Shown: positions 1 through 19,096 of the stretch, piece after piece
Layout of the letters: each line of letters opens with the position of its first letter
Position numbering within the stretch: the stretch's first letter is position 1
Origin: Alphaproteobacteria bacterium
GTDB lineage: Bacteria; Pseudomonadota; Alphaproteobacteria; Rs-D84
Assembly (NCBI GenBank): GCA_015062525.1
Contig: SUUM01000004.1
Span: forward strand, 24,547-88,546
Length of the DNA: 64,000 nucleotides
Direction: 5' to 3'
Translations under genes and position numbers: made by a program
The notes under the pieces: generated by a model
The model's input: the letters and a program-made list of their open reading frames with translations, nothing else
Told to the model about the DNA's origin: nothing
Database searches by the model: none

Positions 1-29
1 TCTAAAAAATCCCCACAACACACCCCACT

Positions 30-2787: not shown

Positions 2788-3535
2788 CTGTTATCAACGT
2801 ACTTTCGATTGTCATCCCAGATTTCAATATTAAATCCGGGTTTTCAAATTGCACCTTGACGCCATAGACCAAGCGCGTACGTTCATCACGTGTCTGAACA
2901 TTTTTTGGGGTAAATTCTGCGACCTCGCTTATTTTTATAATGCGCCCACGAAATTGCATATTATCTGCCTCGGGCAAAACACCAATTACATTTTGTCCCA
3001 CGCGCAATTTGTGCAACATACCATACGGCACATAAAAATACGCCCATATATCATACGGATTTGAAACAGATATCAACGGGGTCCCGGGTGCGACCACCTC
3101 GCCTACCTCGCGAAAACGTGTAATTACCATGCCATTAATTGGCGACAGTACACGACACCACTGTAATTTCAAATCATTATCCCGCTTGGTACGCACCAAT
3201 GCATCATATTCAGAATCCGCCAAGTGTCCACGCGATTGTAATTGCGATGCGCGTTCAAAATCTCGGTCAATTTGGGTCGCCAAAATTTTATACACATCAC
3301 ACGATAATTCCACCAACGGTTGGCCAACCGATACATTATCACCCTCTATCACATAAACATCGGAAATATCAGAAGCCACACGCGATGATATTACAACCTT
3401 GGTTGTTTCAAGTGTACCCGCATAATAAAACGGCCGATGTGCCACCCAGTATTTGATAGCAACCACCGCCACCACAATCACAATTGCCGCAATTGTCAAA
3501 CCGGCAAAAATTTTAATCCTATTTTTATTTTTCAT
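2780..3535 (-). CDS. HlyD-family periplasmic adaptor (membrane fusion protein)
   Basis: N-terminal TM anchor then HlyD-like biotinyl-lipoyl/beta-barrel pattern; sits in an operon with the ABC ATPases and permease. Confidence 0.65.
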   Translation of the reverse strand: MKNKNRIKIFAGLTIAAIVIVVAVVAIKYWVAHRPFYYAGTLETTKVVISSRVASDISDVYVIEGDNVSVGQPLVELSCDVYKILATQIDRDFERASQLQSRGHLADSEYDALVRTKRDNDLKLQWCRVLSPINGMVITRFREVGEVVAPGTPLISVSNPYDIWAYFYVPYGMLHKLRVGQNVIGVLPEADNMQFRGRIIKISEVAEFTPKNVQTRDERTRLVYGVKVQFENPDLILKSGMTIESTLITDD

Positions 3536-3589
3536 ACCCCAATTATGCCAGAAATCTGACCTAATTTCGTTGGGTATGAATTCATAAAT

Positions 3590-3994
3590 TTATTTATCAA
3601 TAATCTGATTAACCTGGGCAATCAGCCGAACAAACATATCAAATTTTTTTGTTCCTAATTTTGATTTAATCAGATTCATTTTTTCATTATTTGTCTGTGA
3701 AATTTTATTAAATAAATCTTTACCGCGTTTGCTGGGCATAACATAGACACTGCGCCCATCTTCGGGCGACGGCACACGCACAACCAGGCCATGTTCTATC
3801 AATACCGCCAAATGCGCACTAATCATCGCCTTGGACACATGCAACGTTTCCGCCAATATCGCTGGAACATGTGGTCCCGGTGTTGTGCACATAATACTCA
3901 ACACGGCAAATTGACTGGCACGAATCGGCATATCATCCCCCGCATTACGCATAACCGCCCGACAAAACCGCATTATTTCCGCATTCATTTTCAC
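3590..3994 (-). CDS. MarR family transcriptional regulator
   Basis: ~130 aa winged-helix protein with a MarR-like pattern, directly upstream of the efflux operon. Confidence 0.65.
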   Translation of the reverse strand: MKMNAEIMRFCRAVMRNAGDDMPIRASQFAVLSIMCTTPGPHVPAILAETLHVSKAMISAHLAVLIEHGLVVRVPSPEDGRSVYVMPSKRGKDLFNKISQTNNEKMNLIKSKLGTKKFDMFVRLIAQVNQIIDK

Positions 3995-4232
3995 ACAATT
4001 TAATTAACCAACGTTAACCATTATAATTCACCCAGATTAACTAAATCAAGAAAATAAAAACACCCAGAAAAACCGTCGCGATTGCGACGGAATAACTATT
4101 ATTTTGTTTTAAATGGCGCCACAAATTTGCGACGTTCTTGTCCGGAATTTTATCCAACTTCACAGCTAATCCTTTTTAAGCCTAAGGACCGGCACATCAA
4201 AACAACAAACAATATCAACGAAAGAATCCAAG

Positions 4233-4262
4233 AAAAAATCCCGACATCGTCGGGATTAAAAT
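4233..4262 (-). terminator. rho-independent terminator (AATCCCGACGATGTCGGGATTTTTT on minus strand)
   Basis: Perfect GC-rich hairpin followed by a T-tract immediately after the small ORF. Confidence 0.6.
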
Positions 4263-4424
4263 TTACATTTCGTTGCCACCATTGTCCCCCAGGAACACAT
4301 TTCGCATACGAAATTCCTTCATAATATCAACCTTGGCGCCCGCATTCTTAAAACCACGCACTTTCGCGCCCCCCTGTTCCAGAGATTGCATCGCAATATT
4401 AAAATTTTTTACCATATCAGTCAT
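4263..4424 (-). CDS. small hypothetical protein (53 aa, MTDMVKNFNIAMQSLEQGGAKVRGFKNAGAKVDIMKEFRMRNVFLGDNGGNEM)
   Basis: Absent from the ORF track because it is under 60 aa; GAGG RBS 8 nt upstream of ATG and followed by an intrinsic terminator. Confidence 0.4.
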   Translation of the reverse strand: MTDMVKNFNIAMQSLEQGGAKVRGFKNAGAKVDIMKEFRMRNVFLGDNGGNEM

Positions 4425-4511
4425 TTCAAATGCCTCTTGTCAAAACATCTCTCTGACGCAATCAATATATACCACAAAAAACTTTTTGTCAAGTATTGTT
4501 GCGAGATAATT

Positions 4512-6092
4512 TTACTCTTCACAATCAAATTCAGCACAGCTCCCCATCGAATATTCCTCTATCGCAAACTCCATCGGCACTGGCTTAGGCTCTTCTGTAT
4601 AGTGAACTTCTTTGACGACACGCACACGACGATTTGCCGCATTCGGAGTATTGTCTGGTGTTGGCACCGCCAAATCTTCCTCGCCGGCGGAAACAGCAAC
4701 AATTTGGCTGGCCGGAATTCCGTACTTAATCAACATCTTCTGCACGGCTTCGGCACGACGTCCCCCCAACGCATAGTTATAATTGGATGTACCCGCCGTA
4801 TCGGTATGCCCAACCACAGAAACCCTGATATTTTTATTTTCCTGGGTCACATCAACCAACTGTTTAATCAATTCCTGATATTCTGGTTTAATAGTCGCCT
4901 TGTTAAAATCAAACCGTATTTCGAACACTTCCTCCATAACATGCTGGGTTGGTTCAAGTGGAATCTGCTGAACCTTAATCATTGTTTTTTCGCCCTGATT
5001 CACTTGAATCTGGTCCAGACGCGCATTAATCGCAGCCAATTCCGCACGCATCGCCATCATCATATTGATAAATTCTTCACGCGACACCAGTTCATCCCCA
5101 ATCATTGGTGGTTCTTTTTCTTTTACCACAACCGCCACAGATGGCGCATTTTGACAATTCGCATCACCCTGTGCACATGTATGATTATGCGATTGCGACT
5201 GGCATTCCATATCCCCCGCTGGGCAATCAACCGCCATCAGACGATTAGCACTGTTGTGCATACTGTTGTCATTTGCACTGTTTGAAATTGTTTTATCCCC
5301 ACCATAGATATTCTGATTAAACACCATTGGCTGAACTGGCACAGGATTAATCAGATGTTCTGGCACATTAACGTTATTCACAACAATCACACCTTCGCGT
5401 GCCGCGCCACCACCACGCATAGTGTTCATACCACGCGTTTCCGGATAATAAGCCCCAGCGGTACGTTGCGTTGTTTCAACAACAGTTTCCCGCCCTACAA
5501 CACTCGCGGTTGATTTATTCACAACTTTACCACCATTACAATCACGCAACGCCACCAGGGCTTTATTAAACCTGTCGCGACATTGATTTGCAGTTGCAAC
5601 CTGACCACTTGCCGCCGCAGACAACCAGCAATCAAACTTAGCCTGCGCCTCAGCCGCCAGTTCCGGATTAGTGTACGACGCATCATTTTTCAATTGATCC
5701 ATCAAATCATTATACGCAGCATACAACTCAAACGATTCCTGTTCATTTTCCACCGGCCAATTTTCAAGAGATTCTGGGAATGGCACCTCGCCACTAAATG
5801 CAGCAACGGCCTTGTTAGCAAACAACTCGCCCATATCGGTATAACCACTGGTCCGCGCATTATAAATCGCATAAGAACGATAATTCATTGCCAATTGATT
5901 CAAGAAAGAATCCTGATGCGGTGCGGAATAAACATCCAAAAACTCAACATAATCAACAGTCGGCGTCGCACCAACATCCGTATATTCCATCACATCGCCA
6001 CCCGAACGTGCACACGCACCAACCGCCACAATGCCCACCAGCGCCAGCATACGTGATATAACCCATGTAGCAACATTTGATTTATATTTCAT
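4512..6092 (-). CDS. OmpA-family (peptidoglycan-binding) lipoprotein
   Basis: Signal peptide with lipobox-like VGAC; C-terminal OmpA/MotB domain (VGHTDTAGTSNYNYALGGRRAEAV...RRVRV). Confidence 0.75.
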   Translation of the reverse strand: MKYKSNVATWVISRMLALVGIVAVGACARSGGDVMEYTDVGATPTVDYVEFLDVYSAPHQDSFLNQLAMNYRSYAIYNARTSGYTDMGELFANKAVAAFSGEVPFPESLENWPVENEQESFELYAAYNDLMDQLKNDASYTNPELAAEAQAKFDCWLSAAASGQVATANQCRDRFNKALVALRDCNGGKVVNKSTASVVGRETVVETTQRTAGAYYPETRGMNTMRGGGAAREGVIVVNNVNVPEHLINPVPVQPMVFNQNIYGGDKTISNSANDNSMHNSANRLMAVDCPAGDMECQSQSHNHTCAQGDANCQNAPSVAVVVKEKEPPMIGDELVSREEFINMMMAMRAELAAINARLDQIQVNQGEKTMIKVQQIPLEPTQHVMEEVFEIRFDFNKATIKPEYQELIKQLVDVTQENKNIRVSVVGHTDTAGTSNYNYALGGRRAEAVQKMLIKYGIPASQIVAVSAGEEDLAVPTPDNTPNAANRRVRVVKEVHYTEEPKPVPMEFAIEEYSMGSCAEFDCEE

Positions 6093-6198
6093 TGTTTATT
6101 CCTCTCTTTCTTCAATTGATATTATTATAGTATTTTTAGATCATTTAGTAAAGAATAAAAAACACTCAAAAACAAAAATTGCCAACGACGTTTTACTT

Positions 6199-6669
6199 TT
6201 ATCTTCCTTTCAGGATTCTCGCTTTACTTTTATCCCATTCACGCTGTTTGATTGTTTCGCGTTTGTCCACCTTGTTTTTACCATAGCCAACACCCAACAA
6301 AACCTTTAGCCGCCCACGATTATTAAAATATAATTTCAGAGGTACAATAGTCGCACCTTTTTCCTGTAATTTTCCAATCAAGCGATTAATCTGATTACGA
6401 TGCAATAATAATTGACGACTGCGCCGTTCATCAAAGTTCACGATACGCGCAGCGGTCGGCAACTTTTGAACTTCTACCCCCGCCAGCCACAAATTATCAC
6501 CACGACGTTGCACAAAACCATCAACAATAGTCACCAAACCATATCGGATTGATTTTATTTCCGCCCCCGTCAGGGAAATTCCTGCTTCTATTGTATCTTC
6601 AATAGAATAATTGAACCGCGCCTTGCGGTTTTCTGAAACCTGTCCTGATTTAATAATTTGTCGTACCAT
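6199..6669 (-). CDS. smpB: SsrA-binding protein SmpB
   Basis: 156 aa with the conserved SmpB sequence pattern (KSGQVSENRKARFNYSIEDTIEAGISLTGAEIKS). Confidence 0.9.
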   Translation of the reverse strand: MVRQIIKSGQVSENRKARFNYSIEDTIEAGISLTGAEIKSIRYGLVTIVDGFVQRRGDNLWLAGVEVQKLPTAARIVNFDERRSRQLLLHRNQINRLIGKLQEKGATIVPLKLYFNNRGRLKVLLGVGYGKNKVDKRETIKQREWDKSKARILKGR

Positions 6670-6711
6670 AATGCAACGATTTTATATCACCCCCACAAAA
6701 AAATCAAATAC

Positions 6712-6905
6712 TTCGCTAAATAAAAGTTTAGTGGTTAGTGTAAGTGCTAGTGGTTAGTGGATGTGTGCGGCGAATGCCGCACATTATAGTGCCATCACTT
6801 ACCACTCACACTAACCACTTATCACTAAGATAAACTTTTATTTATCTAAGTGATGATATGTTAATTGCGCTTTGCTCTTTGCGCTTTGCTCTTTGCTCAT
6901 TGAAA
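6712..6905. repeat. palindromic repeat element (ttagtggttagtg family) plus gcgctttgctctttgc direct repeats
   Basis: ~130-bp imperfect palindrome centred on hairpin TGTGCGGCGAATGCCGCACA; copies recur at 13312, 35866, 38185 and 38440. Confidence 0.8.
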
Positions 6906-6930
6906 AAATCCCCCACCAGGGGGATTTTTA

Positions 6931-7983
6931 TCAGAACCTGTACACCCCAGAAACATTGATATTATGCAGTTGAATCACATCATTATATTTATACCGGTAA
7001 CCAATACCAAACTGTACCCCACGTGCCGACAGCAATTCTACACCACCACTAATATTAGCCCACAATGGATCAATATCAATATCATACCGTATAAACTCAT
7101 CCGCTACAGCAAATTTATATTCTGCATGATTTGGCGCACCGAACACATCATATTCCACCCCAATTGATGCATATGGTCGAACTTGGAACCTTGCCGATGG
7201 ATAAATACGTTTCTGTGCAATCAATGAATACCCCGGCGTTAAAACAAAATACCCATCTGATTGCATACGCAGATACTCATGGCCCGCCACCTTTTCTTTG
7301 ACATTAGACCCGAAATTATAGCCAACACGTACATACAAATTACCCACAACATATTGATTCAGAACATCATGCATCAGTCCCCATTCACTCATCAAACTGA
7401 ACGCAGTACCATCACCATCAATTCTGTCAACCAAGTTCTGGGTACGGTCAACGTCAAAGACATGCAAATCCAAGAACGCATTACCATATAAACGTGTCTT
7501 TTCACCCAGTATTTTCATCAAATAACCGCCCAGGCCAATATCAGTATCTGCGACATCAATACTGACATTTCCCACCTGGGTTGTACCAGCATAACTTAAA
7601 TCCACGGAATCACCCGCTTTGGACGTTGTGTGCGACACACGCCCCGACACCCCCAATTGCAAGGTATTTGATTCCTGCCAGTCAAAACCGCCCGCCACAC
7701 TGACACGATGACCGTCTGTATGTTTGCCATCATTAATATTTTGATAGAAAATACCATAATCGACATCCAACCATGCTTTATTCAAATTGCGATGACGATT
7801 CCAGATAAATTCATCAAACATACGGTCTTCGAATGAACGAAAGGACATATGTTCATTTAGCGCGACCGCCCCCGCAATCTGTTCAACAGATACCAGATTT
7901 TGAGCTGTTTCTGGTTCTACTACATCCGCCCCTGCCCCCATTGGCAGCAAGCAACAAACCAAAGATAACAACTTTTTCATCAT
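6931..7983 (-). CDS. outer-membrane beta-barrel protein (family unassigned)
   Basis: Signal peptide MMKKLLSLVCCLLPMGAGA, alternating beta-strand pattern, C-terminal YRF typical of OMPs. Confidence 0.55.
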   Translation of the reverse strand: MMKKLLSLVCCLLPMGAGADVVEPETAQNLVSVEQIAGAVALNEHMSFRSFEDRMFDEFIWNRHRNLNKAWLDVDYGIFYQNINDGKHTDGHRVSVAGGFDWQESNTLQLGVSGRVSHTTSKAGDSVDLSYAGTTQVGNVSIDVADTDIGLGGYLMKILGEKTRLYGNAFLDLHVFDVDRTQNLVDRIDGDGTAFSLMSEWGLMHDVLNQYVVGNLYVRVGYNFGSNVKEKVAGHEYLRMQSDGYFVLTPGYSLIAQKRIYPSARFQVRPYASIGVEYDVFGAPNHAEYKFAVADEFIRYDIDIDPLWANISGGVELLSARGVQFGIGYRYKYNDVIQLHNINVSGVYRF

Positions 7984-8080
7984 TTTTTTATTTCCTTCCT
8001 ATAACAATTGTGATTATATTATGGCACATTTCATTTTCCTATGGCAATATGAAATTGTATATACATCTAAAGGAAACTAA

Positions 8081-9355
<1,275 letters not shown>

Positions 9356-9371
9356 TCACCGCAGAAAGAAT

Positions 9372-9400
9372 AAAAACGGGGGGGCGCACGCCCCCTTTTA
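9372..9400 (+). terminator. intrinsic terminator after eno
   Basis: AAAAACGGGGGGGCGCACGCCCCCTTTTAT hairpin with T-tract. Confidence 0.7.
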
Positions 9401-9410
9401 TAACACACAA

Positions 9411-9617
9411 ATGTTAAACAATATTGACTTTTTACTGATAATAAAATACGCACTGGGTGTAATGTTAACCATTGGGGTCATTTTTGCACCCGCCTGGATT
9501 GCGCGCCAAAATGGACGTGGCAAACCAGACATGCATGCCGTCAGATTGGCCAGTTGGATTTTCGGCTGGTCAATTATCGGTTGGCTGTGGTCTTTATTCT
9601 GGGCAACCCGCAAATAG
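9411..9617 (+). CDS. small membrane protein, superinfection-immunity-like (Imm family)
   Basis: 68 aa with two TM helices and a WIFGWSIIGWLWSLFWA motif resembling PF14373-type proteins. Confidence 0.4.
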   Translation: MLNNIDFLLIIKYALGVMLTIGVIFAPAWIARQNGRGKPDMHAVRLASWIFGWSIIGWLWSLFWATRK

Positions 9618-9626
9618 GTGTCACAA

Positions 9627-12263
9627 TTAATCTACTCCCTCTGGCAAATTCACGTATACACCGCTACCATCACCATCATCAACACAATAACGGAAGCCAT
9701 CACTCCCTTTTTGCACCGTCATCCCAAGTGCACAGACCTGATTAAAATCTGAAAACGAACGTGCTGTACACCAATTATTCTCGGTCGGTTTTTTTGTGAA
9801 ATCAGACCACAACTCTACCCCACTTGTAGTACAACTAGCATCCGCAGCCGCAACCTGTAAACCCTGGTCATCTATCATCGTTGCCGGCAACACCGCAACA
9901 CACTTGGACGATTTTCCCCACTTACTGCGACGTGCACCATTTTCCCAACACAAACACGCACCCCACGACTGGGTCGCAACCCCCAAACTATAATCACGCG
10001 GGCACATATCTTCACCATTTCCAATTCCATATAACGAAACCAACGTATTAGAACCATGTTCACGTATGTCATACCGGGAATCAGTAAAATTCGCCAAACA
10101 CAAATTATTCTCATTATACGCGCCATCATCAAAGAACTGATACTCCATAAATCGTCCCTGCAGATTCGCGCACTGGATGGACAGCATCGATATAATCTGA
10201 TTATAAACCTCGGTCGCGACACCGGTCGGGCGCATATTCCTATGTTCCAGCGCATAGCGATCATTCTCGTCTGCATTTTCAGCCACAAGCCCATATCTGA
10301 CATAGGCGGTATTATTATTATCCGTATTCACGCCACCCCTTGGGACTGCAAACGAAAATCCCACACTATTTTGCAGAACATTCTCTACCTCTGCCACATC
10401 AAACCCACCAAAGGCTTGCTTCATCATACTTTCACTACTGCATGCAGTAATATTTGCCAATTGTTTCGCGCATTCGGATTTAAGAACTTCTACTCTTTGC
10501 CCATTTTCATCATACTTAACCTCATACAAAGCAAACCAATCTGGCGCACTTCCTGAATTTGCTGGGAACAAACCGCTGTACGGGTAATAGAAATTTTCAT
10601 AATTATTCCCACCATATTTATCAAAGCATTGCTTTACAACCGCACGACACGCCGTCAATGTATCTGTGTTTTTAATATTATCCACATATTGTGCAATAAT
10701 ATTACCATCAAACATATTATTACATGACTCCACATAGTCCGAACACATTTGACTATTCAGCACAACTTTATCTGGCTGCAACACAATACTACTATCCCCC
10801 GCCAATTCCGCCATAGCTGTGGTTATTGCCTTATTTCCATTCATATAACAATTGGCCACATAATCCAAGCATCCTTGTTTAATTTCCGAAACCTTTGCTT
10901 TCTGGGCATAATAAATAGACAACATTGCCTTGTCTAAATATTCGGCCCAAACGGTATCTGCGTTTTCCACACACTTATCCAGCGCATCTTGCGCAAATTT
11001 TTTAACCCTGTTTTCAAAATTTTGGACGAATGCCCGATTAGACGAATTTTTAGATAATTTTTGATCAACCGCTTCAACCCCATCGCTGAACACCAGCATT
11101 TGTTCCAATTTATAGAAATCTTCCACTCCAACAATCGGCTTACCGGTTGAAATATCGATATATTGTCCATTATCTAAACACTTATGATAATCTGCACCGC
11201 ACACCTGTTCGCTTAATATCGCCGCTTCCACTTCGTTAATACAGGTTGTAATATCAGACGAATTATGTTTCTGACGATTTTCCACACGCGCCAAATCCAG
11301 CATTGCGCTACCCTCGCGCACAGCGGCCTTCATCTGCTTTTGTGTTTTTTCAACTGCCGCCTGCACTGTATTACAGTCTTGTTCAATTGCCATTAAATAC
11401 GCTGTAATCGCCCGTTGCAACGACGCATCGTTACAATCCGCCCGCACAGCATCACGACATTGGGGATAAACGGCACTATACAGCGCATTACCATTATACG
11501 CGGCGATTGCCTGTCCAGCGTCCACCATCCCAAATGCATTAACCGTATCAAAAGAAATATTAACACTGTTTAAATCTGAATATTTACCACCCACAGATGT
11601 ATCTTCGCCACGAATAGAATTCATAATTGCCTGCAACAACGCCTTGGATGCAGAATTATCATCAGTCAGGGCATTTTCGCCTTCGGTCTGGGTACGCATT
11701 GCCGTTGCCTGAGCGGCGGTCATCCCCACCACATCCAAAGATTCTGTGAACACAGTCAACTTTTCCCCCGCCTGTTCCAGAACGCCACGCACTTCGTCCA
11801 ATTCAAACACACGGTCATTACACGAACAACGGCGATAATTATCATTTTTCAGCATACAAAATTGGTCCATACACGAAAAGTATGTATTTTTACATTGTTC
11901 ATATTCCGCACCGGTCCGCGTAGATGACATTGCCCCCACCGCATCATTTCCCGCGCGCGCAACAATCGGCGTCATATTGCGTGAATTACTGATATTTTTT
12001 GCCACCCGTGTGGTCAAAGAACGAGTGTTTATTCCATTACGTGAAACCGTTGCCCGACTTTTACTAGAATCTGTTGTTGCCCGCGCTGATAAAACAGATG
12101 TACGCGGTTCGCTGCGTTTTACAACCGTGGCGGTTCGTGCCTGGGTCTGGGCCACACTTTTATCTAATTTTGCACGCGAAACCGCCGTTCCATCACGAAC
12201 GGCCGCATTTGCGACACCGACGCAAACCAGCAGATTTGCAAGAAAAACCAGAACTCTCTTCAT
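9627..12263 (-). CDS. large secreted Cys-rich protein, paralog A (unknown function)
   Basis: Signal peptide MKRVLVFLANLLVCVGVANA; T/R/A/S-rich low-complexity segment then a Cys-rich domain homologous to 27766..30762; ORF extends to 12323 but start 12263 gives the signal peptide. Confidence 0.6.
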   Translation of the reverse strand: MKRVLVFLANLLVCVGVANAAVRDGTAVSRAKLDKSVAQTQARTATVVKRSEPRTSVLSARATTDSSKSRATVSRNGINTRSLTTRVAKNISNSRNMTPIVARAGNDAVGAMSSTRTGAEYEQCKNTYFSCMDQFCMLKNDNYRRCSCNDRVFELDEVRGVLEQAGEKLTVFTESLDVVGMTAAQATAMRTQTEGENALTDDNSASKALLQAIMNSIRGEDTSVGGKYSDLNSVNISFDTVNAFGMVDAGQAIAAYNGNALYSAVYPQCRDAVRADCNDASLQRAITAYLMAIEQDCNTVQAAVEKTQKQMKAAVREGSAMLDLARVENRQKHNSSDITTCINEVEAAILSEQVCGADYHKCLDNGQYIDISTGKPIVGVEDFYKLEQMLVFSDGVEAVDQKLSKNSSNRAFVQNFENRVKKFAQDALDKCVENADTVWAEYLDKAMLSIYYAQKAKVSEIKQGCLDYVANCYMNGNKAITTAMAELAGDSSIVLQPDKVVLNSQMCSDYVESCNNMFDGNIIAQYVDNIKNTDTLTACRAVVKQCFDKYGGNNYENFYYPYSGLFPANSGSAPDWFALYEVKYDENGQRVEVLKSECAKQLANITACSSESMMKQAFGGFDVAEVENVLQNSVGFSFAVPRGGVNTDNNNTAYVRYGLVAENADENDRYALEHRNMRPTGVATEVYNQIISMLSIQCANLQGRFMEYQFFDDGAYNENNLCLANFTDSRYDIREHGSNTLVSLYGIGNGEDMCPRDYSLGVATQSWGACLCWENGARRSKWGKSSKCVAVLPATMIDDQGLQVAAADASCTTSGVELWSDFTKKPTENNWCTARSFSDFNQVCALGMTVQKGSDGFRYCVDDGDGSGVYVNLPEGVD

Positions 12264-12382
12264 CTCTGATGAAAAGTCTAGCAAATTTGCCAATTCCCGT
12301 GCAAGCGAATAATACCAAGACATAAAAAACCTATTTTTCTTGTTGCAAAGATTTGAAAATTAATATATTATACCTGTCGCCT

Positions 12383-12469
12383 GCGGATATGGCGGAATTG
12401 GTAGACGCGCTAGTTTCAGGTACTAGTGGTAGCAATACCTTGGAAGTTCGAGTCTTCTTATCCGCACCA
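12383..12469 (+). tRNA. tRNA-Leu (anticodon CAG), type II with long variable arm
   Basis: Manual cloverleaf: acceptor GCGGATA/TATCCGC, anticodon stem CTAGT/ACTAG, loop TTCAGGT, encoded CCA. Confidence 0.8.
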
Positions 12470-12474
12470 GTTCT

Positions 12475-12550
12475 GGGGTTGTAGCTCAGTTGATAGAGCG
12501 CTACGTTCGCATCGTAGAGGTCGTGGGTTTGAGTCCCATCAGCTCCACCA
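12475..12550 (+). tRNA. tRNA-Ala (anticodon CGC)
   Basis: 76 nt; G3:U70 identity pair, loop TTCGCAT, T-loop TTTGAGT, encoded CCA. Confidence 0.8.
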
Positions 12551-12582
12551 AATTTACTTATCGGCTTTGCCGATTAGGAAAT

Positions 12583-12650
12583 TTGAGTGTCTCGGCGGTG
12601 CTTGCACCGACGGACGGAAAGAACTCAAATTGGAACAAACATATTCGATG
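12583..12650. repeat. hairpin element GTCTCGGCGGTGCTTGCACCGACGGAC (single copy of the 27365 tandem-repeat core)
   Basis: Same ~45-bp motif, including flanking aaatttgagt, as the 52-bp tandem units at 27365-27714. Confidence 0.7.
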
Positions 12651-12681
12651 CCGCGAATTGCGGCATTATTAAAAAGTCTTC

Positions 12682-12768
12682 GGGGATATGGCGGAATGGT
12701 AGACGCTGAGGACTTAAAATCCTTTGGTCATTGCGACCGTGTGGGTTCAAGTCCCACTATCCCCACCA
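12682..12768 (+). tRNA. tRNA-Leu (anticodon TAA), type II
   Basis: Acceptor GGGGATA/TATCCCC, loop CTTAAAA, long variable arm, encoded CCA. Confidence 0.8.
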
Positions 12769-12801
12769 CACATTCGCCCAACAAATGGCGATTTTTTATT
12801 T

Positions 12802-12878
12802 GGATGTGTAGCTCAGTTGGTTAGAGCGCTTCGTTCACATCGAAGAGGTCGTTGGTTCGAGTCCAATCACATCCACCA
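12802..12878 (+). tRNA. tRNA-Val (anticodon CAC)
   Basis: 77 nt; anticodon stem CTTCG/CGAAG, loop TTCACAT, T-loop TTCGAGT, CCA. Confidence 0.8.
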
Positions 12879-12892
12879 CAAATTAAACATCT

Positions 12893-13010
12893 CGCCATCC
12901 GGCGGGATTTTTTAGTGGCTAGTGTAAGTGCATCCGTCTGTGCACAGCACAGCCGAGATAAAAAGAGCAAAGAGCAATTAATGTATCTTTACCGCGATGA
13001 ATAAAAGTTT
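12893..13010. repeat. repeat element arm (inverted partner of 13437..13530)
   Basis: agtgtaagtgcatccgtctgtgcacagcacagccgagataaaaagagcaaagagcaattaatgtatctttac is the reverse complement of 13441..13510. Confidence 0.75.
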
Positions 13011-13128
13011 AACAGAGATATTAATTTTTAGAAATTAAGCACCATTACCTGCCCCCGTCGGGCCCCGAAAAATTCAGATGAATTTTTTGGGTGACTTTGT
13101 GGGGCGGGACAGTTTTACTTGACCCGCC

Positions 13129-13314
13129 ATGCGGGGCTTTAGTAAAACTTGGGTGGGGGCAAATATGACAAAACATTCAACACAAGTTATTCGCGCAAAA
13201 CAATTACGCAAAAATATGTCAGACGCAGAAAGCAAATTCTGGTATCGAATTAATCGCAATCAACTAGGTGTAAAATTTCGCCGCAATAACAAAGCCACTT
13301 ACTTCGATAAATAA
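13129..13314 (+). pseudogene. truncated DUF559-like (endonuclease-domain) gene fragment
   Basis: 61 aa matching the N-terminal DUF559 pattern (LRKNMSDAESKFWYRINRNQLGVKFRR) but lacking the C-terminal half; ORF ends at the repeat element at 13312. Confidence 0.4.
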
Positions 13315-13530
13315 AAGTTTAGTGGTTAGTGCAAGTGGTTAGTGGTTAGTGGATGTGTGCGGCGAATGCCGCACATTATAGTGCCATCACTTACCACTTA
13401 CACTAACCACTTATCACTAAGATAAACTTTTATTTAGCGCAGTAAAGATACATTAATTGCTCTTTTTATCTCGGCTGTGCTGTGCACAGACGGATGCACT
13501 TACACTAATCACTAAAAAATCCCCGCTTGG
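13312..13530. repeat. palindromic repeat element (ttagtggttagtg family) plus inverted partner arm
   Basis: Near-identical to 6714..6846; the second half is the reverse complement of 12893..12960; ends in an A-tract/hairpin/T-tract terminator-like module also seen at 23843..23907. Confidence 0.8.
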
Positions 13531-13671
13531 TTGCACCCGCGCAAACGAATGTTTGTGTGGGTGGAATCCAGGGTGTTTTTTTACAAAAAAAAATGTGTGC
13601 TGACACATGTACAAAAACAACAATTTTTTCATACAAAAAACACAAGTAATATCAATATATTAATCCGTGTA

Positions 13672-13699
13672 AAAACTATAAAACAAACCAACGTTTGTT
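13672..13699. promoter_or_regulatory. hix/gix-like 28-bp palindromic site, left copy: TATAAAACAAACC-AA-CGTTTGTTTTATA
   Basis: 13+2+13 architecture with an AA central dinucleotide; A-rich...CC | GG...T-rich half-sites reminiscent of Hin hix sites; the partner site at 13764 has the inverted core. Confidence 0.45.
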
Positions 13700-13763
13700 T
13701 TATACCATTTTGTCAAACAAAAAAATAGCAGATTTCCGCCATTTTTGCAAGCGCAAATCAACT
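13700..13763 (-). promoter_or_regulatory. putative invertible promoter segment: TTGCAA-N17-TGC-TATTTT on the minus strand
   Basis: -35 TTGCAA, 17-bp spacer and extended -10 TGcTATTTT read leftward, away from the Gly-rich operon, in the present orientation. Confidence 0.35.
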
Positions 13764-13791
13764 ATAAAACAAACGTTGGTTTGTTTTATAG
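13764..13791. promoter_or_regulatory. hix/gix-like 28-bp palindromic site, right copy, inverted core: TATAAAACAAACG-TT-GGTTTGTTTTATA
   Basis: Exact reverse complement of the left copy, so the two sites form inverted repeats. Confidence 0.45.
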
Positions 13792-13808
13792 TCTAAATGG
13801 GGGGATTT

Positions 13809-14816
13809 ATGCCGGCAATACATGTTAATAATGTTGATATTCAGGTGTATGAACAGCAGTATACATCACCCACCCTGCACGTGCAAAATACCGACGGAAA
13901 AATATACCATGCAATTGTTATACCCCAGGGGGGCGAATTTCTTGATGCCTCGGAAAAACTGGTATATTCCGCGGATTCAATCAACGAATGCGAACCGGTC
14001 ACATTGGATGCGGGAATGTATCGCGTGGAATTGCGTGGTGGCGCGGGTGGAAAACAATCGCGGTGTAATGTCGGTTTGGGTACAATAAACCCGGTTGCCA
14101 ATACGGTATCCCAGGTTTTTAAATTACCCACACAAACAACCGTATATGCATTTCGTGGTGGCGATGGTAATGACAGTCCCACGGTGACGGTTCATCAGAT
14201 TCCGGGTGGTGGCGCATCGGGTGTGGACAGCATGCTGGTGGTGGGTGACCATGCAATTGTTGGTATCGGCGCACCATCGTCACAGTGTTTTAATTTAGCT
14301 ATTACATCATACCCATACCCCCATGGGGGCACAACAACACGCTTTCAGTGCCAATCCACACCATCTGGAACATATGCCATAGAAAACATTGAAATAGGAC
14401 AAGCTGTAGGTGGTACTTATTTTGGCTGTGGTGGGGGTGGCGGGGGTGCCCCAAATGGTATTGGTGGTACATCGGTTTCATACACAAACGTTAAAATAAC
14501 CGCCGGCACCAATGCGACATCTGATGGGGGTGGGAATGGTGGTGATGCGGAAAATTTAACGGGGGATTCACAAACAAAAAATCTGGGGATTGGTGGCATT
14601 GGTGGCAAAAACGTATATTGGCAATGTGCCGGTCACACGGCGGTATCGTATGGTGGGGGCGGCGGCGGCGCCACATGCATGTTGTACAACCCAAATACGT
14701 GCGCCAGCACAACAAATGCATGGTGTTATTCCGATTGCGCCGATGGTGGCGACGGTGCATCGGGCAGTACCGGCAAATCAGACACCAGTTACGTTAAAAT
14801 TTATAAAATAGGATAA
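13809..14816 (+). CDS. Gly-rich protein, paralog 1 (fibre-like, unknown function)
   Basis: GGGGGG RBS then ATG at 13809; Gly-rich blocks (GGGGGGAPNGIGG, GGGNGGD); ~35% identical to the next gene; no signal peptide. Confidence 0.6.
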   Translation: MPAIHVNNVDIQVYEQQYTSPTLHVQNTDGKIYHAIVIPQGGEFLDASEKLVYSADSINECEPVTLDAGMYRVELRGGAGGKQSRCNVGLGTINPVANTVSQVFKLPTQTTVYAFRGGDGNDSPTVTVHQIPGGGASGVDSMLVVGDHAIVGIGAPSSQCFNLAITSYPYPHGGTTTRFQCQSTPSGTYAIENIEIGQAVGGTYFGCGGGGGGAPNGIGGTSVSYTNVKITAGTNATSDGGGNGGDAENLTGDSQTKNLGIGGIGGKNVYWQCAGHTAVSYGGGGGGATCMLYNPNTCASTTNAWCYSDCADGGDGASGSTGKSDTSYVKIYKIG

Positions 14817-14821
14817 TCATA

Positions 14822-15793
14822 ATGTTATTACCGTTGGCATTATTATCGGCATTATATTTTAAAACATCGGATGGTAATATTTATCATACCATTGATAAAA
14901 TACCGGATGGCATGTGCATACTAAACAATAACGGCGCGGAATTGGTGTACGAAGCAAGCAATTTTAACACCTGTAACGAAATTGTATTACAACCCGGATG
15001 TTATCGTGCGGAACTACGTGGCGGAATTGGCTTACAAAATGAATATTGTTTATCCATTGCCGAACAGGATTTTACCCCCACCATATCCGCAATATTCAGT
15101 ATAAACGAACCAACCACGGTATATGTATTCCGTGGTGGCGATGGTAACCCAGGTGGGGTAAATGTTATAAATAACAGAACTGGTGCATTCGGTGGCGGTG
15201 CATCGGGCGTGGACAGCATATTGGTTGTTGGCGACCGTGTATGGCGTGCATCGGGTGGCGCGGGTAAAACGTGTGTAGCCACAAGATATCATCTGAATGG
15301 CGCTACCAGCTCTAGCTCAGTTTCTGTTGGAAATGGTATTGGTGGGGGCGCAACGTCAAAAATCAGCACTCAATCTCGTTTATATTTACAACAAATATCA
15401 GCACTACGCTTCGAGGTATACGGCATTGGCGGTGGTGGTGGCGCGTCACCAAATGGCGCCGGCGGTACAGATTGGCAATTCCACAGTGCTTTTATCAATG
15501 CGGATGAATATGTAAATGCCGGCACCAATGGCACAGATGAACGTGGTGGTAACGGTGGTGATATTTATTCGTGTAATAACCCATCCTGTACATCCATGGT
15601 ATCCGCCACGGGGGGCACGGGTGGCGCAACCGTTACATATGAATGTGGTGGCCAAACCGCAAAATCATATGGTGGTGGTGGCGGTGGCGGGGCATACAAT
15701 GGAAGCAACTCAACCGCCGCCAACGGCGGTAATGGCGGTTCCGGTTCAACCGGCACCAGCGACACATCATTTGTACGAATTTATCGCATATAA
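14822..15793 (+). CDS. Gly-rich protein, paralog 2
   Basis: AGGA RBS; shares VY.FRGGDGN, GGGASGVDS.LVVGD and TG.SDTS.V.IY.I motifs with paralog 1; tandem arrangement. Confidence 0.6.
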   Translation: MLLPLALLSALYFKTSDGNIYHTIDKIPDGMCILNNNGAELVYEASNFNTCNEIVLQPGCYRAELRGGIGLQNEYCLSIAEQDFTPTISAIFSINEPTTVYVFRGGDGNPGGVNVINNRTGAFGGGASGVDSILVVGDRVWRASGGAGKTCVATRYHLNGATSSSSVSVGNGIGGGATSKISTQSRLYLQQISALRFEVYGIGGGGGASPNGAGGTDWQFHSAFINADEYVNAGTNGTDERGGNGGDIYSCNNPSCTSMVSATGGTGGATVTYECGGQTAKSYGGGGGGGAYNGSNSTAANGGNGGSGSTGTSDTSFVRIYRI

Positions 15794-15809
15794 ATTATTT
15801 ATATCAAAT

Positions 15810-16412
15810 TTATTCCCACCCCTGACGTTTTACAAACTGTGATACAGTCGCGGGATAAACCCCCATTATCTTGGATATTTGATATTTACTGACCCCCATA
15901 TCCAATAAATCTTTCACCAGTTTTGTATTTCTGGCCAGGCCCAATTTCCTTGAACGTGTCGCCATCGGTCGCCCCAGTCTTTTGCCCGTGGCACGAATAC
16001 TGTCCAACGACGCCTTGGTTCGTTGCGATATCAGGTTGCGTTCAATCTCGGCCGATAAACCAAATGCAAATGCCATTACCTTGGACTGAATATCATTTCC
16101 CAAACGATAACTTTCCTTGATGGTCCAAACCTGACAATTTTTATTCATACAAAATTCCAAAATTTTCATAATCTCTAGTACCGAACGCCCCAGACGCGAT
16201 ATCTCGGCGGCAATTAAAATATCACCATCATGCAACCCATTTAACAATAACCATAAACGTCTTTTCGATAATGGTTCACGCGATGATATTTTTTCTTGTA
16301 TCCACCGTTCGACCTTTATATGATTTTGCCTTGAAAATTTATTTATCTCGAAATATTGATGTTCGCACGTTTGTTTATTCGATGACACACGAATATAGCC
16401 GATAATCGCCAT
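15810..16412 (-). CDS. serine recombinase, Hin/Gin/Cin-type DNA invertase (resolvase family)
   Basis: 200 aa; N-terminal catalytic motif IGYIRVSS with the Ser nucleophile; C-terminal HTH (GVSKYQISKIMGVYPATVSQFVKRQG); size typical of small invertases. Confidence 0.8.
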   Translation of the reverse strand: MAIIGYIRVSSNKQTCEHQYFEINKFSRQNHIKVERWIQEKISSREPLSKRRLWLLLNGLHDGDILIAAEISRLGRSVLEIMKILEFCMNKNCQVWTIKESYRLGNDIQSKVMAFAFGLSAEIERNLISQRTKASLDSIRATGKRLGRPMATRSRKLGLARNTKLVKDLLDMGVSKYQISKIMGVYPATVSQFVKRQGWE

Positions 16413-16547
16413 TTTTTGAACCTTTTGATTTAAAATTTATTTTTCAATTTCTTTTACATAATACAAAAGTACAAATTCAATGAATTTTCTGCTTCCATTA
16501 AATATGAAAATTTATTATTATTAACACAGGAAGGAAGAGACAAAGGC

Positions 16548-16883
16548 ATGAGAAAAATTTCATATATCGTTTTTGCGTGTGTATTGTATATCCCATTTGC
16601 AAATGCAAAAATTGCAAGTCAAGAGTATGTTACAACTCATACTAGTAATCACACAAACCCGCATCAGGTCACCAAGGCTCAAGTTGGCCTTGGGAATGTA
16701 CCAAACGTTGACACAACAAATGCGGCTAATATTACTACGGGCACACTTGGGTATGACCGCCTGCCGGTTGGAACGACAGCAAACACCGTTGCCGCCGGAA
16801 ACGATGCCAGGTTTTACGCAATACCAACCGCACAACCAACCGTCAACGCCCCAGAAGGCATGGCGTTGGTATGGTTCAATTAA
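16548..16883 (+). CDS. small secreted protein with a phage tail-fibre-like motif (KAQVGLGNVPNVDT)
   Basis: Strong RBS GGAAGGAAGAG; signal-peptide-like N-terminus; motif resembles the conserved VGLGNVDNTSD block of coliphage tail fibres (from memory, not searched). Confidence 0.45.
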   Translation: MRKISYIVFACVLYIPFANAKIASQEYVTTHTSNHTNPHQVTKAQVGLGNVPNVDTTNAANITTGTLGYDRLPVGTTANTVAAGNDARFYAIPTAQPTVNAPEGMALVWFN

Positions 16884-16892
16884 AAATCGTAC

Positions 16893-16930
16893 TATACACC
16901 ACATAAAAAAACCGCCATACGGCGGTTTTT
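16893..16930. terminator. bidirectional intrinsic terminator
   Basis: AAAAAAACCGCCATACGGCGGTTTTTTTTAT between convergent genes. Confidence 0.75.
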
Positions 16931-16931
16931 T

Positions 16932-17678
16932 TTATTTTAAATAAAATGTTATTGTTGCAACAACACGCACTTTCTTGTTAATCGCCTGACGTTCATTGGA
17001 TGACCAACTGTCGGTTGGATCGCGCGATTCGATACTGAATACACCCTGGTTAGCACTTTTAATTTTGCCCAAACGCGCATCCGCATCCTTGGCGAACTGT
17101 TCACCGGCCGCCGTTGCGTTCTTGGTCGCCTGCTCTATCATAGAAATTTTAATATCGTTCAATCTATTAAAGATATAAATCGGTCCCGCATAATCTTCGG
17201 TAATTGTAATACCACGACGCACCAATTCCCCCATTCTGCGCGACACACTGTCCACCAGCGCAACATTGTGCGACCGCACCATAACCCCCGTTTCAATAAC
17301 ATAACGACCGTCGTTTTGTTGATTCTTTAATTCCGAATCGGTGTACCCCGCGTATTTATCACGTACCTGAACACGCAAGTTCTGAATATCATCGGGCGCA
17401 AAACCCGCATCTATCAAAAACGTATTAATTTCGGTTATATCGTTATCAATGCGCTGTTGCAGTTCCGCCAAATCACCCCCAACACCATTGATTTTAATAT
17501 TCCAAACGGCGGTATCGGCCACAACATCACGTTCGGCCAACCCCTTGACCGTCACCGTTCGTCCCGACATCGCGCGATAAATTCCATCACCAATAAAATA
17601 CCCCCCCAGCGCAATTCCAATCGCCAGCACCACCAGCCAAACACCAGACATAGACTTTAATTTCTGTGTAATTTTCAT
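16932..17678 (-). CDS. SIMPL-domain (DUF541, BP26/YggE-like) periplasmic protein
   Basis: N-terminal TM/signal anchor; ~250 aa with a SIMPL-like pattern; family assignment from recollection. Confidence 0.5.
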   Translation of the reverse strand: MKITQKLKSMSGVWLVVLAIGIALGGYFIGDGIYRAMSGRTVTVKGLAERDVVADTAVWNIKINGVGGDLAELQQRIDNDITEINTFLIDAGFAPDDIQNLRVQVRDKYAGYTDSELKNQQNDGRYVIETGVMVRSHNVALVDSVSRRMGELVRRGITITEDYAGPIYIFNRLNDIKISMIEQATKNATAAGEQFAKDADARLGKIKSANQGVFSIESRDPTDSWSSNERQAINKKVRVVATITFYLK

Positions 17679-17734
17679 GATAACTCCCCCTTTATCACCC
17701 TATAATGTAATATAAAATATGCCCCAGGTCAAAA

Positions 17735-18415
17735 CTATTTATTGCGAACAATTTCCCCAATCACGAAATTCGCCATAATCAATCCAAATGTTCCCGTTAT
17801 CGTTATCACAGACCCCAGGTTTTTTGCATGCCCCATAACCGGTGCAGGCGATTCGGTCGAAAAAACGGCGGGAAAATCTGGCATCGCCGCCCCACGCACC
17901 AATCGCCGCACACGTGCCGCCAATGGACAAACACTTGTTTTTGATATCGGCGCAATTTTGATGTGCGTTGGGTCCGTCTTGGACGCCGCCCCCATACTGG
18001 TAATCAGCGGCACATTATGCACATGTGCCCACCTGTACAACGCGACCTTGGATTCCACGCAATCAATCGCATCAATCACAAAGTCCGGCACAATATCCAC
18101 ATCTGTATTTTCATCCCAACGCAGATTCAGCGCATCAACCACAATATCTGGGTTTATATCATGAATGCGTGCGGTGGCAACATCAACCTTTGCCACCCCA
18201 ACGGTCGATGTCAGCGCAAACAACTGCCGATTTATATTTGATTCTTCGACCACATCAAAGTCCACAACCACTAAATGCCCAACACCGCTGCGCGCCAGGG
18301 CCTCAATCGCAAACGAACCAACCGCACCGCAACCAACAACCATAACCGTTGATTTTTTCAGTTTTTCAACCCCCACATCCCCAAACAATAAACGCGTTCT
18401 GTGTAATCTATCCAT
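17735..18415 (-). CDS. tcdA: tRNA threonylcarbamoyladenosine dehydratase TcdA/CsdL (ThiF/MoeB E1-like)
   Basis: VVGCGAVGSFAIEALARSGVGHLVVVDFDVVEESNINRQ: Rossmann GxGxxG plus the E1-like motif characteristic of TcdA. Confidence 0.7.
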   Translation of the reverse strand: MDRLHRTRLLFGDVGVEKLKKSTVMVVGCGAVGSFAIEALARSGVGHLVVVDFDVVEESNINRQLFALTSTVGVAKVDVATARIHDINPDIVVDALNLRWDENTDVDIVPDFVIDAIDCVESKVALYRWAHVHNVPLITSMGAASKTDPTHIKIAPISKTSVCPLAARVRRLVRGAAMPDFPAVFSTESPAPVMGHAKNLGSVITITGTFGLIMANFVIGEIVRNK

Positions 18416-19061
18416 TTTTCAGCATCCTTATTGTATTTTCATAACAATCACAATTCGGACAAATCGCGGCAAATTGTTCCGCGACCCGAACAATCCCCGT
18501 TGGATTGTTTGAATCCGTTTCAATTAAAATGCGATTACTGGCCACATCTGCCACAACATTCCGTGCATTCATAAACGAAAAATATGCATTATAATCCGCA
18601 CACAATCGCGCCACATCCCCCGCATTACCAGAAAAACGATGGAACAGCATAAAAGGTGGCTGTTTGGATTTAGATTTCTTTAGCACCGCGAACATTTTAT
18701 CCCACGCGCCAACACAATGCACATGCACCCCACGCCCCAATTCCGCTGCTATTTCCAATTGGCGTGAAAAAACATCAATTTGCAAATCCATATCGGGCTT
18801 ATGTTTATCCAATCCTATTTCCCCAACCATAATTTCTGGGTTTTGAATCAACAAATCTTGCAATTTTTCATCCCAGCCCGCCACCAAATCCGCCACAAAC
18901 CACGGATGCACCCCAATTGCAGCCCAAACATTTATATTTTTATTTGCCTGGGCAATCACCCCGCCCCATTCTGACGGCCGGGTTGCATTAACGATTGCCC
19001 CGATATTATCGGGCAATTTTTCATCAAACAAATGACAATGTGCATCTATGTATTTTTTCAT
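18408..19061 (-). CDS. TatD-family metal-dependent hydrolase/DNase
   Basis: N-terminal YIDAHCHL motif; start set at MKKYID (19061). Confidence 0.7.
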   Translation of the reverse strand: MKKYIDAHCHLFDEKLPDNIGAIVNATRPSEWGGVIAQANKNINVWAAIGVHPWFVADLVAGWDEKLQDLLIQNPEIMVGEIGLDKHKPDMDLQIDVFSRQLEIAAELGRGVHVHCVGAWDKMFAVLKKSKSKQPPFMLFHRFSGNAGDVARLCADYNAYFSFMNARNVVADVASNRILIETDSNNPTGIVRVAEQFAAICPNCDCYENTIRMLKNG

Positions 19062-19096
19062 ATTTATGCAAAAAACGCCCACACGGGGCGTTTATC

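Follow-up and report, generated by a model that had tools for sequence, protein, structure and literature searches.

Paralogous exported cysteine-rich proteins of Candidatus Enterousia combine a conserved helical core with a fast-diverging C terminus

Two genes, here called A and B, lie in a 64,000-nucleotide stretch of contig SUUM01000004.1 (assembly GCA_015062525.1; the whole stretch is the window below), whose lineage is Candidatus Enterousia, order Rs-D84, Alphaproteobacteria. They code for large paralogues with a common architecture, i.e., a Sec-type signal peptide, a disordered cationic tract of approximately 100 to 140 residues, a helical core of approximately 450 residues and a fast-diverging, beta-rich C terminus framed by Cys residues. 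Both belong among exported Cys-rich surface or envelope proteins. Our preferred interpretation, which we hold tentatively and which falls a little short of being probable, is that they are envelope-anchored stalk proteins displaying a variable binding tip and serving a partner-dependent lifestyle. New here are the assignment of these proteins to a lineage, the repeat nature of the tract, the even Cys numbers and the Cx6C pattern, a confidently predicted fold that has no PDB counterpart, and the opposition between a conserved core and a variable tip. The parts of A and B, and a third gene, C, located downstream of B, are as follows (window coordinates).

9627..12263, minus strand: gene A, exported Cys-rich protein of 878 residues, with 30 Cys in the mature chain (open reading frame and translation)
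12204..12263, minus strand: signal peptide of A, MKRVLVFLANLLVCVGVANA, residues 1 to 20, with an AxA cleavage site (read by eye; start kept in 21 orthologues)
11910..12203, minus strand: polycationic T/A/S/R tract of A, residues 21 to 118, with 13 Arg and a net charge of +11 (motif and composition counts)
10569..11909, minus strand: helical core of A, residues 119 to 565, with 18 invariant Cys and predicted helices of 55 and 82 residues (alignment and AlphaFold 2 [AF2] model)
10164..10568, minus strand: predicted alpha/beta domain of A, residues 566 to 700 (predicted local distance difference test [pLDDT] score, 82 to 97)
9630..10163, minus strand: C-terminal Cys-framed variable region of A, residues 701 to 878 (polymorphism and dN/dS, the ratio of nonsynonymous to synonymous substitution rates)
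9771..9887, minus strand: hypervariable loop of A, approximately residues 793 to 831, where within-species indels cluster
27766..30762, plus strand: gene B, exported Cys-rich paralogue of 998 residues, with 42 Cys and the signal peptide MKGIKLLLAVLLAPLAFQAVA
27829..28239, plus strand: polycationic T/R/A/S tract of B, residues 22 to 158, with 18 Arg and a net charge of +20 (motif and composition counts)
28240..29685, plus strand: conserved helical core of B, residues 159 to 640 (identity and dN/dS)
29686..30759, plus strand: C-terminal Cys-rich variable region of B, residues 641 to 998, with an EGF-like CRPGYKLANNGSC module (identity, polymorphism and dN/dS)
30843..31835, plus strand: gene C, 330 residues, with a signal peptide, 8.8% Cys (28 Cys in the mature protein) and CESG(Y/F)-type modules

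A first-pass annotation of this DNA had reported the reading frames at 9627..12263 and 27766..30762, and we found both to be intact and correctly placed. It had also recognized C as a third secreted Cys-rich protein at 30843..31835, in agreement with the reading frame, signal peptide and Cys content seen here. The example motifs that it cited had, however, been attributed to the wrong genes: CKNTYFSCMDQFC is part of A, and CRTVFYDCMDEFC is part of B. The reading frame of A is open up to 12323, where the public annotation starts it (898 residues). We consider the Met at 12263 to be the start because the classical signal peptide begins there and distant orthologues start there too. Public sequences identical to the window proteins were found for A (P0408; MBE6460825.1, E7007_02855), B (P0426) and C (P0392), each with a record on a contig of 640,797 bp. 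The clusters of A and of B comprise 24 sequences each, some of which are partial. The presence of identical sequences of all three in public assemblies indicates that none is a pseudogene. That A might be a lipoprotein through the Cys of its signal peptide was considered and rejected, as the box reads L-L-V-C, this Cys is not kept in B, and an AxA site follows.

Sequence change is unevenly distributed along both proteins. Identity was determined across the genus, polymorphic sites were counted within clusters at 90%, and dN/dS was calculated by the Nei-Gojobori method for five strains in 10 pairs (A) or against one near-identical strain (B).

Gene A, identity across the genus: core, 77-92% without gaps; tract, 36-90%; beta domain, 38-67%; C terminus, 38-62% with indels
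Gene B, identity across the genus: core, 71-91%; tract, 34-72%; C terminus, 32-51% with indels
Gene A, polymorphic sites: core, 0.7%; tract, 10%; beta domain, 6%; C terminus, 19.7% with indels
Gene B, polymorphic sites: core, 5%; tract, 8%; C terminus, 21.5%
Gene A, dN/dS: core, 0.01-0.05; tract, 0.15-0.56; beta domain, 0-0.13; C terminus, 0.33-1.74
Gene B, dN/dS: core, 0.086; tract, 0.47; C terminus, 0.575

Comparison with genome L028, whose B protein is just 49% identical to that of the window, placed these figures on a scale. The core of B (73% identity) evolves like the housekeeping proteins PolA (74%) and Pth (70%), and its C terminus (36%) evolves faster than the neighboring Pom-like porin (43%); C stands at 34%. 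The C-terminal indels of A cluster in a single loop, at approximately residues 793 to 831, and the same region carries a conserved WGACxCWENGxRRSK motif. We read the C terminus as combining a Cys framework under constraint with fast-changing loops, on which positive selection possibly acts. A check for variation between strains had been proposed for the low-complexity tract, but within species the tract has no indels and 8 to 10% polymorphic sites; it is the Cys-rich C-terminal region that varies. The hypervariability of that region fits the surface or partner interaction proposed in the first-pass annotation.

Gene C is hypervariable too. Between the window and the L030 strain (C at 3268..4278), 98 of 325 residues of C differ (30%), with a synonymous divergence (dS) of 0.41, as opposed to 37 of 998 residues (3.7%) and a dS of 0.06 for the adjacent B. 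C therefore behaves as a divergent, probably recombining allele, which suggests allelic replacement or recombination. A word-based search with C yielded only 16 relatives, and a partial homologue, P0407, contains the PF07699 domain.

The first-pass description of these proteins as exported and disulfide-rich agrees with the numbers of Cys in the mature chains, and disulfide bonding is almost certain. These numbers, based on a crude signal-peptide cut, are even in 104 of 120 orthologues of A, 101 of 119 of B, 40 of 49 distant members of the family and 11 of 12 C sequences, which fits full disulfide pairing in an extracytoplasmic compartment. The alignment revealed 18 invariant Cys in the core of A, including Cx6C (i/i+7) pairs at residues 124/131, 355/362, 465/472, 507/514 and 539/546. 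A first AF2 model, of full-length A with 44 sequences, was poor (pLDDT 60), and its Foldseek search was uninformative. A second one, of residues 112 to 700 with 125 diverse sequences, was confident (pLDDT 87.5; predicted template modeling score, 0.58). As far as residue 558 the model consists of helices alone, two of which span 55 and 82 residues each; an alpha/beta domain follows, for which Foldseek returned only nonsignificant NTF2-like matches. The Cys pairs 124/131, 465/472 and 539/546 lie inside predicted helices, 507/514 spans two short adjacent helices, and 355/362 is in a loop. From this model we infer that Cx6C pairs would staple antiparallel helices. Searches of PDB sequences with the single protein and with a 125-sequence profile gave no match, and the predicted fold, which is confident, has no PDB neighbor.

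The T/R/A/S-rich tracts of both proteins had been noted before, and their net charges of +11 and +20 bear this out. Their description as disordered linkers holds as far as disorder is concerned, with a pLDDT of approximately 27 across the tract of A in the full-length model, but the tract is more than a linker. Over 122 family members it is composed of 17.6% T, 16.9% A, 12.8% S and 11.5% R with few acidic residues, and Arg occurs preferentially in the context (V/I)-(S/A)-R-(S/A/T)-A-T. The pattern R[SATGN][AG][TVAIS] was found 615 times in these members, compared with 146 +/- 10 times in composition-preserving shuffles, an excess to be read as an effect size rather than a probability since the sequences are related. 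The modal Arg-Arg spacing is 7. In a more distant alphaproteobacterial genome, L026, the gene at 1712..4177 contains about ten clean tandem copies of TSARSATP, and the copies in A and B of the window are eroded (LSARATT, VSARNAT, TARVAT). The low-complexity tract is thus a degenerate array of a (T/S)-S-A-R-S-A-T-type motif. It follows a conserved mature N terminus, which reads AVRDG in A, whereas the B family has DDxxD(I/V)ARAATRR. No DNA tandem repeat was detected in the tract of A, and the tract of B contains one two-copy 24-bp repeat (27981..28027). A contingency-locus reading of the tract was rejected, given the near absence of DNA tandem repeats and of within-species length variation. No other open reading frame of the window has a similar tract.

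A and B had been proposed to be paralogues, and BLASTP confirmed this with 32% identity over about 505 residues (E value of 6e-61). The collinear domain of about 700 residues that had been described is partly correct. Strong similarity is confined to residues 119 to 565 of A and 159 to 640 of B, i.e., to about 450 to 500 residues, and downstream of it only the Cys framework is common to both (C598, C754, C772, C788, C832, C844 and C860, invariant in a 44-sequence alignment). The family profile nevertheless aligns the two proteins from end to end. More than 950 database relatives were found for A and more than 846 for B, the top 120 of each being full length and 46 to 96% identical. Since both families span the genus, the duplication is old and predates its radiation. 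Enterousia assemblies seem to contain both paralogues together. A and B are single-copy, vertically inherited, ancient paralogues, as their gene neighborhoods also show.

The tRNA genes next to A and B, identified with ARAGORN, are the following.

12383..12878, plus strand: cluster of tRNA genes, Leu(CAG)-Ala(CGC)-Leu(TAA)-Val(CAC), pointing away from A and separated from it by 119 bp
12383..12469, plus strand: tRNA-Leu(CAG), the first of this four-tRNA cluster
27238..27322, plus strand: tRNA-Leu(AAG), preceding B in the same orientation

This agrees with the first-pass annotation, in which a tRNA-Leu(CAG) at 12383 faced A and a tRNA-Leu at 27238 preceded B. A adjoins a divergent Leu(CAG)-Ala(CGC)-Leu(TAA) cluster in at least 15 metagenome-assembled genomes (MAGs) of Enterousia, with Val(CAC) next in most of them, and enolase is located downstream of A in the closer ones. 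B is flanked on one side by a DUF3078 barrel, a 210-residue protein, a Pom-like porin and tRNA-Leu(AAG), and on the other side by C, Pth and PolA. This order is kept in L028, where tRNA-Leu(AAG) lies directly upstream of the B orthologue, about 70 bp away, and a C orthologue (34% identity, E value of 3e-34) lies downstream of it. The recurrence of the same tRNA neighbors in these genomes makes the adjacency ordinary conserved synteny. It is therefore not informative on mobility or recent duplication, and a reading of the two loci as mobile elements or products of tRNA integration was rejected.

Insertions were observed within and beside the tRNA cluster. An island of about 4 kb (12879..16931) separates tRNA-Val(CAC) from a SIMPL-family gene (16932..17678); it contains open reading frames at 13797..14816 and 14822..15793 (weak Gly_rich_2 match) and a serine resolvase gene (15810..16412, minus strand). 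The island is missing from the closest syntenic MAG (L017), in which the SIMPL orthologue abuts tRNA-Val, and other Enterousia MAGs have an insert of 1.2 to 2 kb between tRNA-Leu(TAA) and tRNA-Val. The insertion hotspot is the tRNA cluster beside A, not genes A or B themselves. In one strain (L032; ERZ28436057 contig, 1..500), the gene calls place the end of a Peptidase_M23 gene about 400 bp upstream of A, where the four-tRNA cluster stands in the window, so that this strain may have a rearrangement upstream of A.

Other features of the neighborhoods are recorded here. A gene for a 90-residue membrane protein of the Imm_superinfect family (9345..9617, plus strand) is convergent with A and overlaps the end of the enolase gene by 11 nucleotides; it is conserved (72 to 80% identity) in each of eight related MAGs and every strain contig that we examined. 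The Pom-like porin gene (Protochlamydia outer-membrane protein family; 25425..27125, minus strand) is divergent from B. The porin has an N-terminal low-complexity extension of about 70 residues rich in Q, S, Y and R and, at 43% identity to its L028 counterpart, evolves fast. The cluster formed by the DUF3078 barrel, the 210-residue protein, Pom, tRNA-Leu, B and C is kept across deep divergence. Farther away, at approximately 50000..64000, the GC content drops to 0.37-0.42, compared with about 0.45 elsewhere in the window. That region encodes two NUDIX proteins (one with a pyrophosphatase domain and one with ASCH), CYTH and GNAT proteins, a weak ART-PolyVal match, a PNP_UDP phosphorylase and peptidases S51 and S41. 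It is possibly an island of foreign origin with a role in nucleotide metabolism or defense. It also includes an unassigned 504-residue open reading frame (62416..63930, minus strand) with 4% Cys and no signal peptide. GC skew of the plus strand is strongly and persistently negative over 1..50000 (-0.1 to -0.29) despite genes on both strands, a pattern that fits a plus strand serving as lagging-strand template across most of the window.

Where do these proteins belong? The first-pass annotation had recognized no family for A and B, and our scans led to the same result. A Pfam-A hmmscan at an E value of 1 or less and scans of NCBIfam and PHROG gave no meaningful match for A, B or C, the sole subthreshold match being DUF5039 (E value of 6e-4, below the gathering cutoff). 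In contrast, a 44-sequence profile searched against 1.84 billion cluster representatives retrieved 888 proteins at an E value of 1e-3 or less, 415 of them at 1e-30 or less, each representing a cluster at 50% identity. In the window, this family profile detected A and B and no further member. All named representatives are "hypothetical protein" entries from MAGs of Alphaproteobacteria, Proteobacteria or "Rickettsiales bacterium," the latter being the NCBI label of one named distant member. The relatives found in GTDB contigs (one genome per species) all come from MAGs named Candidatus Enterousia or "Alphaproteobacteria bacterium," sampled from yak, sheep, deer, buffalo, chicken and other guts. 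A search for homologues in Rickettsiales, Holosporales and Legionellales had been proposed, but the named matches include none from characterized members of these orders and come only from MAGs of uncultured gut Alphaproteobacteria. The family is specific to reduced-genome gut Alphaproteobacteria, i.e., Enterousia, Rs-D84 and allied MAG lineages.

Distant members provided little additional information on function. A Pfam scan of 52 of them revealed no recurrent domain; one Big_2 and one Ephrin_rec_like domain were found in variable tails, and one DnaA fusion is probably a gene-calling artifact. The genomic context of one distant member (L031) showed no recurrent partner genes. In L026 (JAVBPX010000003.1, EPI_MAG_00150), nine consecutive signal-peptide genes lie on the same strand at 250..17460. 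Their products are mostly Cys-rich, several have R/A/T/S-rich tracts, and 5 of the 9 belong to the A/B family; the gene at 12412..13281 codes for an N-terminal Cys motif without a tract.

The lineage gives these proteins a biological setting. Rs-D84 is an uncultured order, and Enterousia genomes of 0.75 to 1.0 Mb lack the tricarboxylic acid cycle, respiratory chains, standard transporters and most biosynthesis, including that of nucleotides, amino acids and lipids (PMC12306168). These bacteria are widespread in the guts of ruminants, birds, termites and humans; dependence on a partner has been suggested as their way of life, although their mode of life is regarded as an open question (PMC12306168). 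The reduced or symbiotic lifestyle surmised in the first-pass annotation is thus supported by the lineage, and partner dependence is probable. Our search of the literature on Enterousia, Rs-D84 and related terms found nothing on the proteins described here.

We compared A and B with known Cys-rich or surface-exposed proteins. Chlamydial OmcB has a signal peptide, a basic N terminus that binds heparan sulfate and a Cys-rich, disulfide-bonded body, and it is part of the envelope of host-dependent Gram-negative bacteria with reduced genomes. The resemblance is one of architecture only: A and B have a signal peptide, a basic N-terminal segment (+11 and +20) and a Cys-rich body with even Cys counts, and a Pom-type (Protochlamydia-like) porin is encoded beside B. 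In contrast with OmcB, however, their core is all-helical in the model, with putative Cx6C staples, their tract is a SARSAT-type array rather than a set of short XBBXBX motifs, and they belong to another lineage. The Pfam models of chlamydial OmcB and OmcA had no match in A, B, C or the 52 distant members. TraN of F-like plasmids is a Cys-rich outer-membrane protein for mating-pair stabilization whose tip recognizes a surface protein of the partner cell. It is similar to A and B in being large and Sec-exported, with many conserved Cys, a conserved body and a variable tip. No Pfam match to TraN was found in the same set of proteins, and the neighbors of A and B are enolase, tRNAs, Pth, PolA and outer-membrane proteins. 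By analogy, OmcB and TraN would be the nearest functional counterparts.

Other comparisons concern single features. Twin-CXnC (CHCH) proteins of the mitochondrial intermembrane space are helical hairpins of about 60 residues with Cys spaced by 3 or 9. Protein A likewise has Cys pairs at a fixed spacing on predicted helices, which suggests double disulfide staples and an oxidizing extracytoplasmic compartment, but the spacing in A and B is 6, the core comprises about 450 residues and 18 Cys, and there is no homology. A pattern reminiscent of Ephrin_rec_like, GCC2_GCC3 and furin-like modules, C..C..G(Y/F)...C..CP.GS.S, was recognized by eye in C (CTQVSAGYYS...CPAGSTSAAGSTDITAC) and in B (CRPGYKLANNGSC). 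PF07699 was detected in one distant family member and in partial homologues of C; C and B themselves remain below every Pfam threshold, and the similarity between C and the B tail is marginal (E value of 0.004). Autotransporter or YadA_anchor translocator domains are absent from A, B and C, although they were detected in other proteins of the window (6931..7983 and 36077..37672). No Pfam or NCBIfam match to S-layer families of the SLH or RsaA type was obtained, and no type I secretion system is adjacent. Lastly, a constrained stalk, a distal module that diversifies or is relaxed and indels in loops are reminiscent of phage tail fibers and pilus tip adhesins. The predicted fold of A and B is, however, helical and disulfide-rich rather than a trimeric beta-fiber, and we found no PHROG match and no phage context, the genes being in conserved chromosomal synteny.

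How could such proteins work? Once exported, they would be fully oxidized. Cx6C pairs would link neighboring antiparallel helices, resulting in a rigid, elongated stalk; the 82-residue helix alone would measure about 12 nm. The stalk would be under housekeeping-level constraint, most likely because it would assemble with its paralogue or with partners in the envelope that are themselves conserved. The cationic repeats could tether the protein in a multivalent manner to an anionic polymer, which may be the cell's own lipopolysaccharide (LPS) or peptidoglycan or else the surface of a partner. The hypervariable C terminus would face outward and form a tip with a binding or antigenic role, probably alongside the product of the co-located gene C. 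Tip and C would contact a partner cell or the surface of a host, on which such transporter- and biosynthesis-poor bacteria are presumed to depend; phage or host immunity might alternatively be the source of pressure on the exposed tail. The sporadic presence of extracellular-type domains (Big_2, Ephrin_rec_like) in the tails of relatives and in partial homologues of C counts in favor of an outward tip.

Several observations weigh against this interpretation. Domain scans of A, B and C and inspection of neighborhoods, including that of L031, revealed no lipobox, beta-barrel, sorting signal or linked secretion system. A and B could be periplasmic, and for a core of such extreme conservation an internal cell-biological role is at least as fitting as that of a stalk in an adhesin. 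Any ligand of the tract is purely conjectural. The C-terminal dN/dS of about 1 (at least 0.8 in 7 of the 10 strain pairs for A) comes from small counts (3 to 9 synonymous and 5 to 29 nonsynonymous differences), from nonindependent pairs and from alignment through indel-rich loops; it could partly reflect relaxed constraint or recombination, and it drops to 0.14-0.30 at larger distances. Finally, the organism is anaerobic, without a respiratory chain (PMC12306168).

The main rival places A and B between the membranes, as disulfide-stiffened struts of an envelope skeleton. The SARSAT-type repeats would bind to, or be cross-linked with, peptidoglycan, the core would span the periplasm, and the proteins would replace tethers lost in the course of genome reduction. 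Variability of the C terminus would then result from weaker constraint or from contact with variable outer-membrane proteins. A core as conserved as PolA and Pth, with a dN/dS of 0.01-0.09, argues for such a role, as does the failure to find any outer-membrane targeting feature or secretion system, and the neighboring genes are envelope genes (BamD, RlpA, OmpA, and the Pom-like and DUF3078 barrels). Also in its favor, the mature N terminus, which reads DDxxD.ARAA.RR in B and AVRDG in A, is acidic and conserved. Godessart et al., in 2021, reportedly described alphaproteobacterial outer-membrane proteins linked to peptidoglycan that have an N-terminal Ala-Asp, to which the N termini of A and B are faintly similar. 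The motif is D-D or A-V-R-D rather than A-D, however, and neither protein has a beta-barrel; with cleavage placed by eye, the mature N termini read AVRDG in A and ADN... or DDxxD in the B family. Within-species hypervariability of the C terminus, loop indels and a dN/dS around 1 would moreover be unusual for a periplasmic protein, and the hypervariable neighbor C points outward, as do those relatives whose tails are of the Big_2 or Ephrin-like kind. On balance we consider a periplasmic skeleton rather unlikely.

Exposure at the surface might also serve protection rather than the binding of a specific partner. In that case A and B, perhaps joined by C in a heteromer, would form an abundant lattice or fibrillar coat, held on LPS by the cationic tract, that shields the cell from phage, grazers or host immunity. 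The position next to tRNA genes is conserved for both genes, B being just downstream of a tRNA-Leu on the same strand. Escherichia coli tufB is similarly located near tRNA genes, and such an arrangement would allow high expression. A conserved assembly module with a variable exposed part and the apparent co-occurrence of the paralogues in Enterousia assemblies are also in line with a coat. However, there is no similarity to S-layer families, we found no type I secretion system or other export route, and 30 to 42 Cys in a protein with a signal peptide are atypical for S-layers, which together make a coat improbable. Release into the medium or a partner cell, as a scavenger whose tract captures DNA, RNA or sulfated glycans or as a polymorphic toxin acting through its C terminus, would suit the missing nucleotide, amino-acid and lipid biosynthesis and standard transporters (PMC12306168), the variable C terminus and the Imm_superinfect-family gene adjoining A, but it is very improbable, as 52 diverse members contain no toxin, nuclease or enzyme domain, the small gene is convergent, beside enolase and conserved rather than polymorphic, no immunity-gene pattern is seen, and constraint is strongest on the structural-looking helical core.

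A bolder reading can also be formulated, although we regard it as a long shot. The Cx6C core would be a new fold in an essential, lineage-specific apparatus for cell contact or uptake, in which A and B, possibly as a heteromer with C, are anchored by SARSAT-type repeats acting as an undescribed envelope-anchoring or sorting tag. In the L026 array, such repeats are shared by several members of the family that otherwise diverge. Rs-D84 bacteria would use this apparatus to attach to partner cells and draw metabolites from them, as a counterpart of the epibiotic machinery of Patescibacteria.

A and B together occupy approximately 5.6 kb of a genome of less than 1 Mb. They represent a sizeable orphan family and provide a new short cationic peptide repeat whose ligand is directly testable. 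If they are structural envelope proteins, they would reveal a new way to build a Gram-negative envelope in reduced genomes. Their cores, as tightly conserved as PolA, combined with strain-variable tips and gene C, make them prime candidates for the molecules that mediate the dependence of these bacteria on a partner or host.

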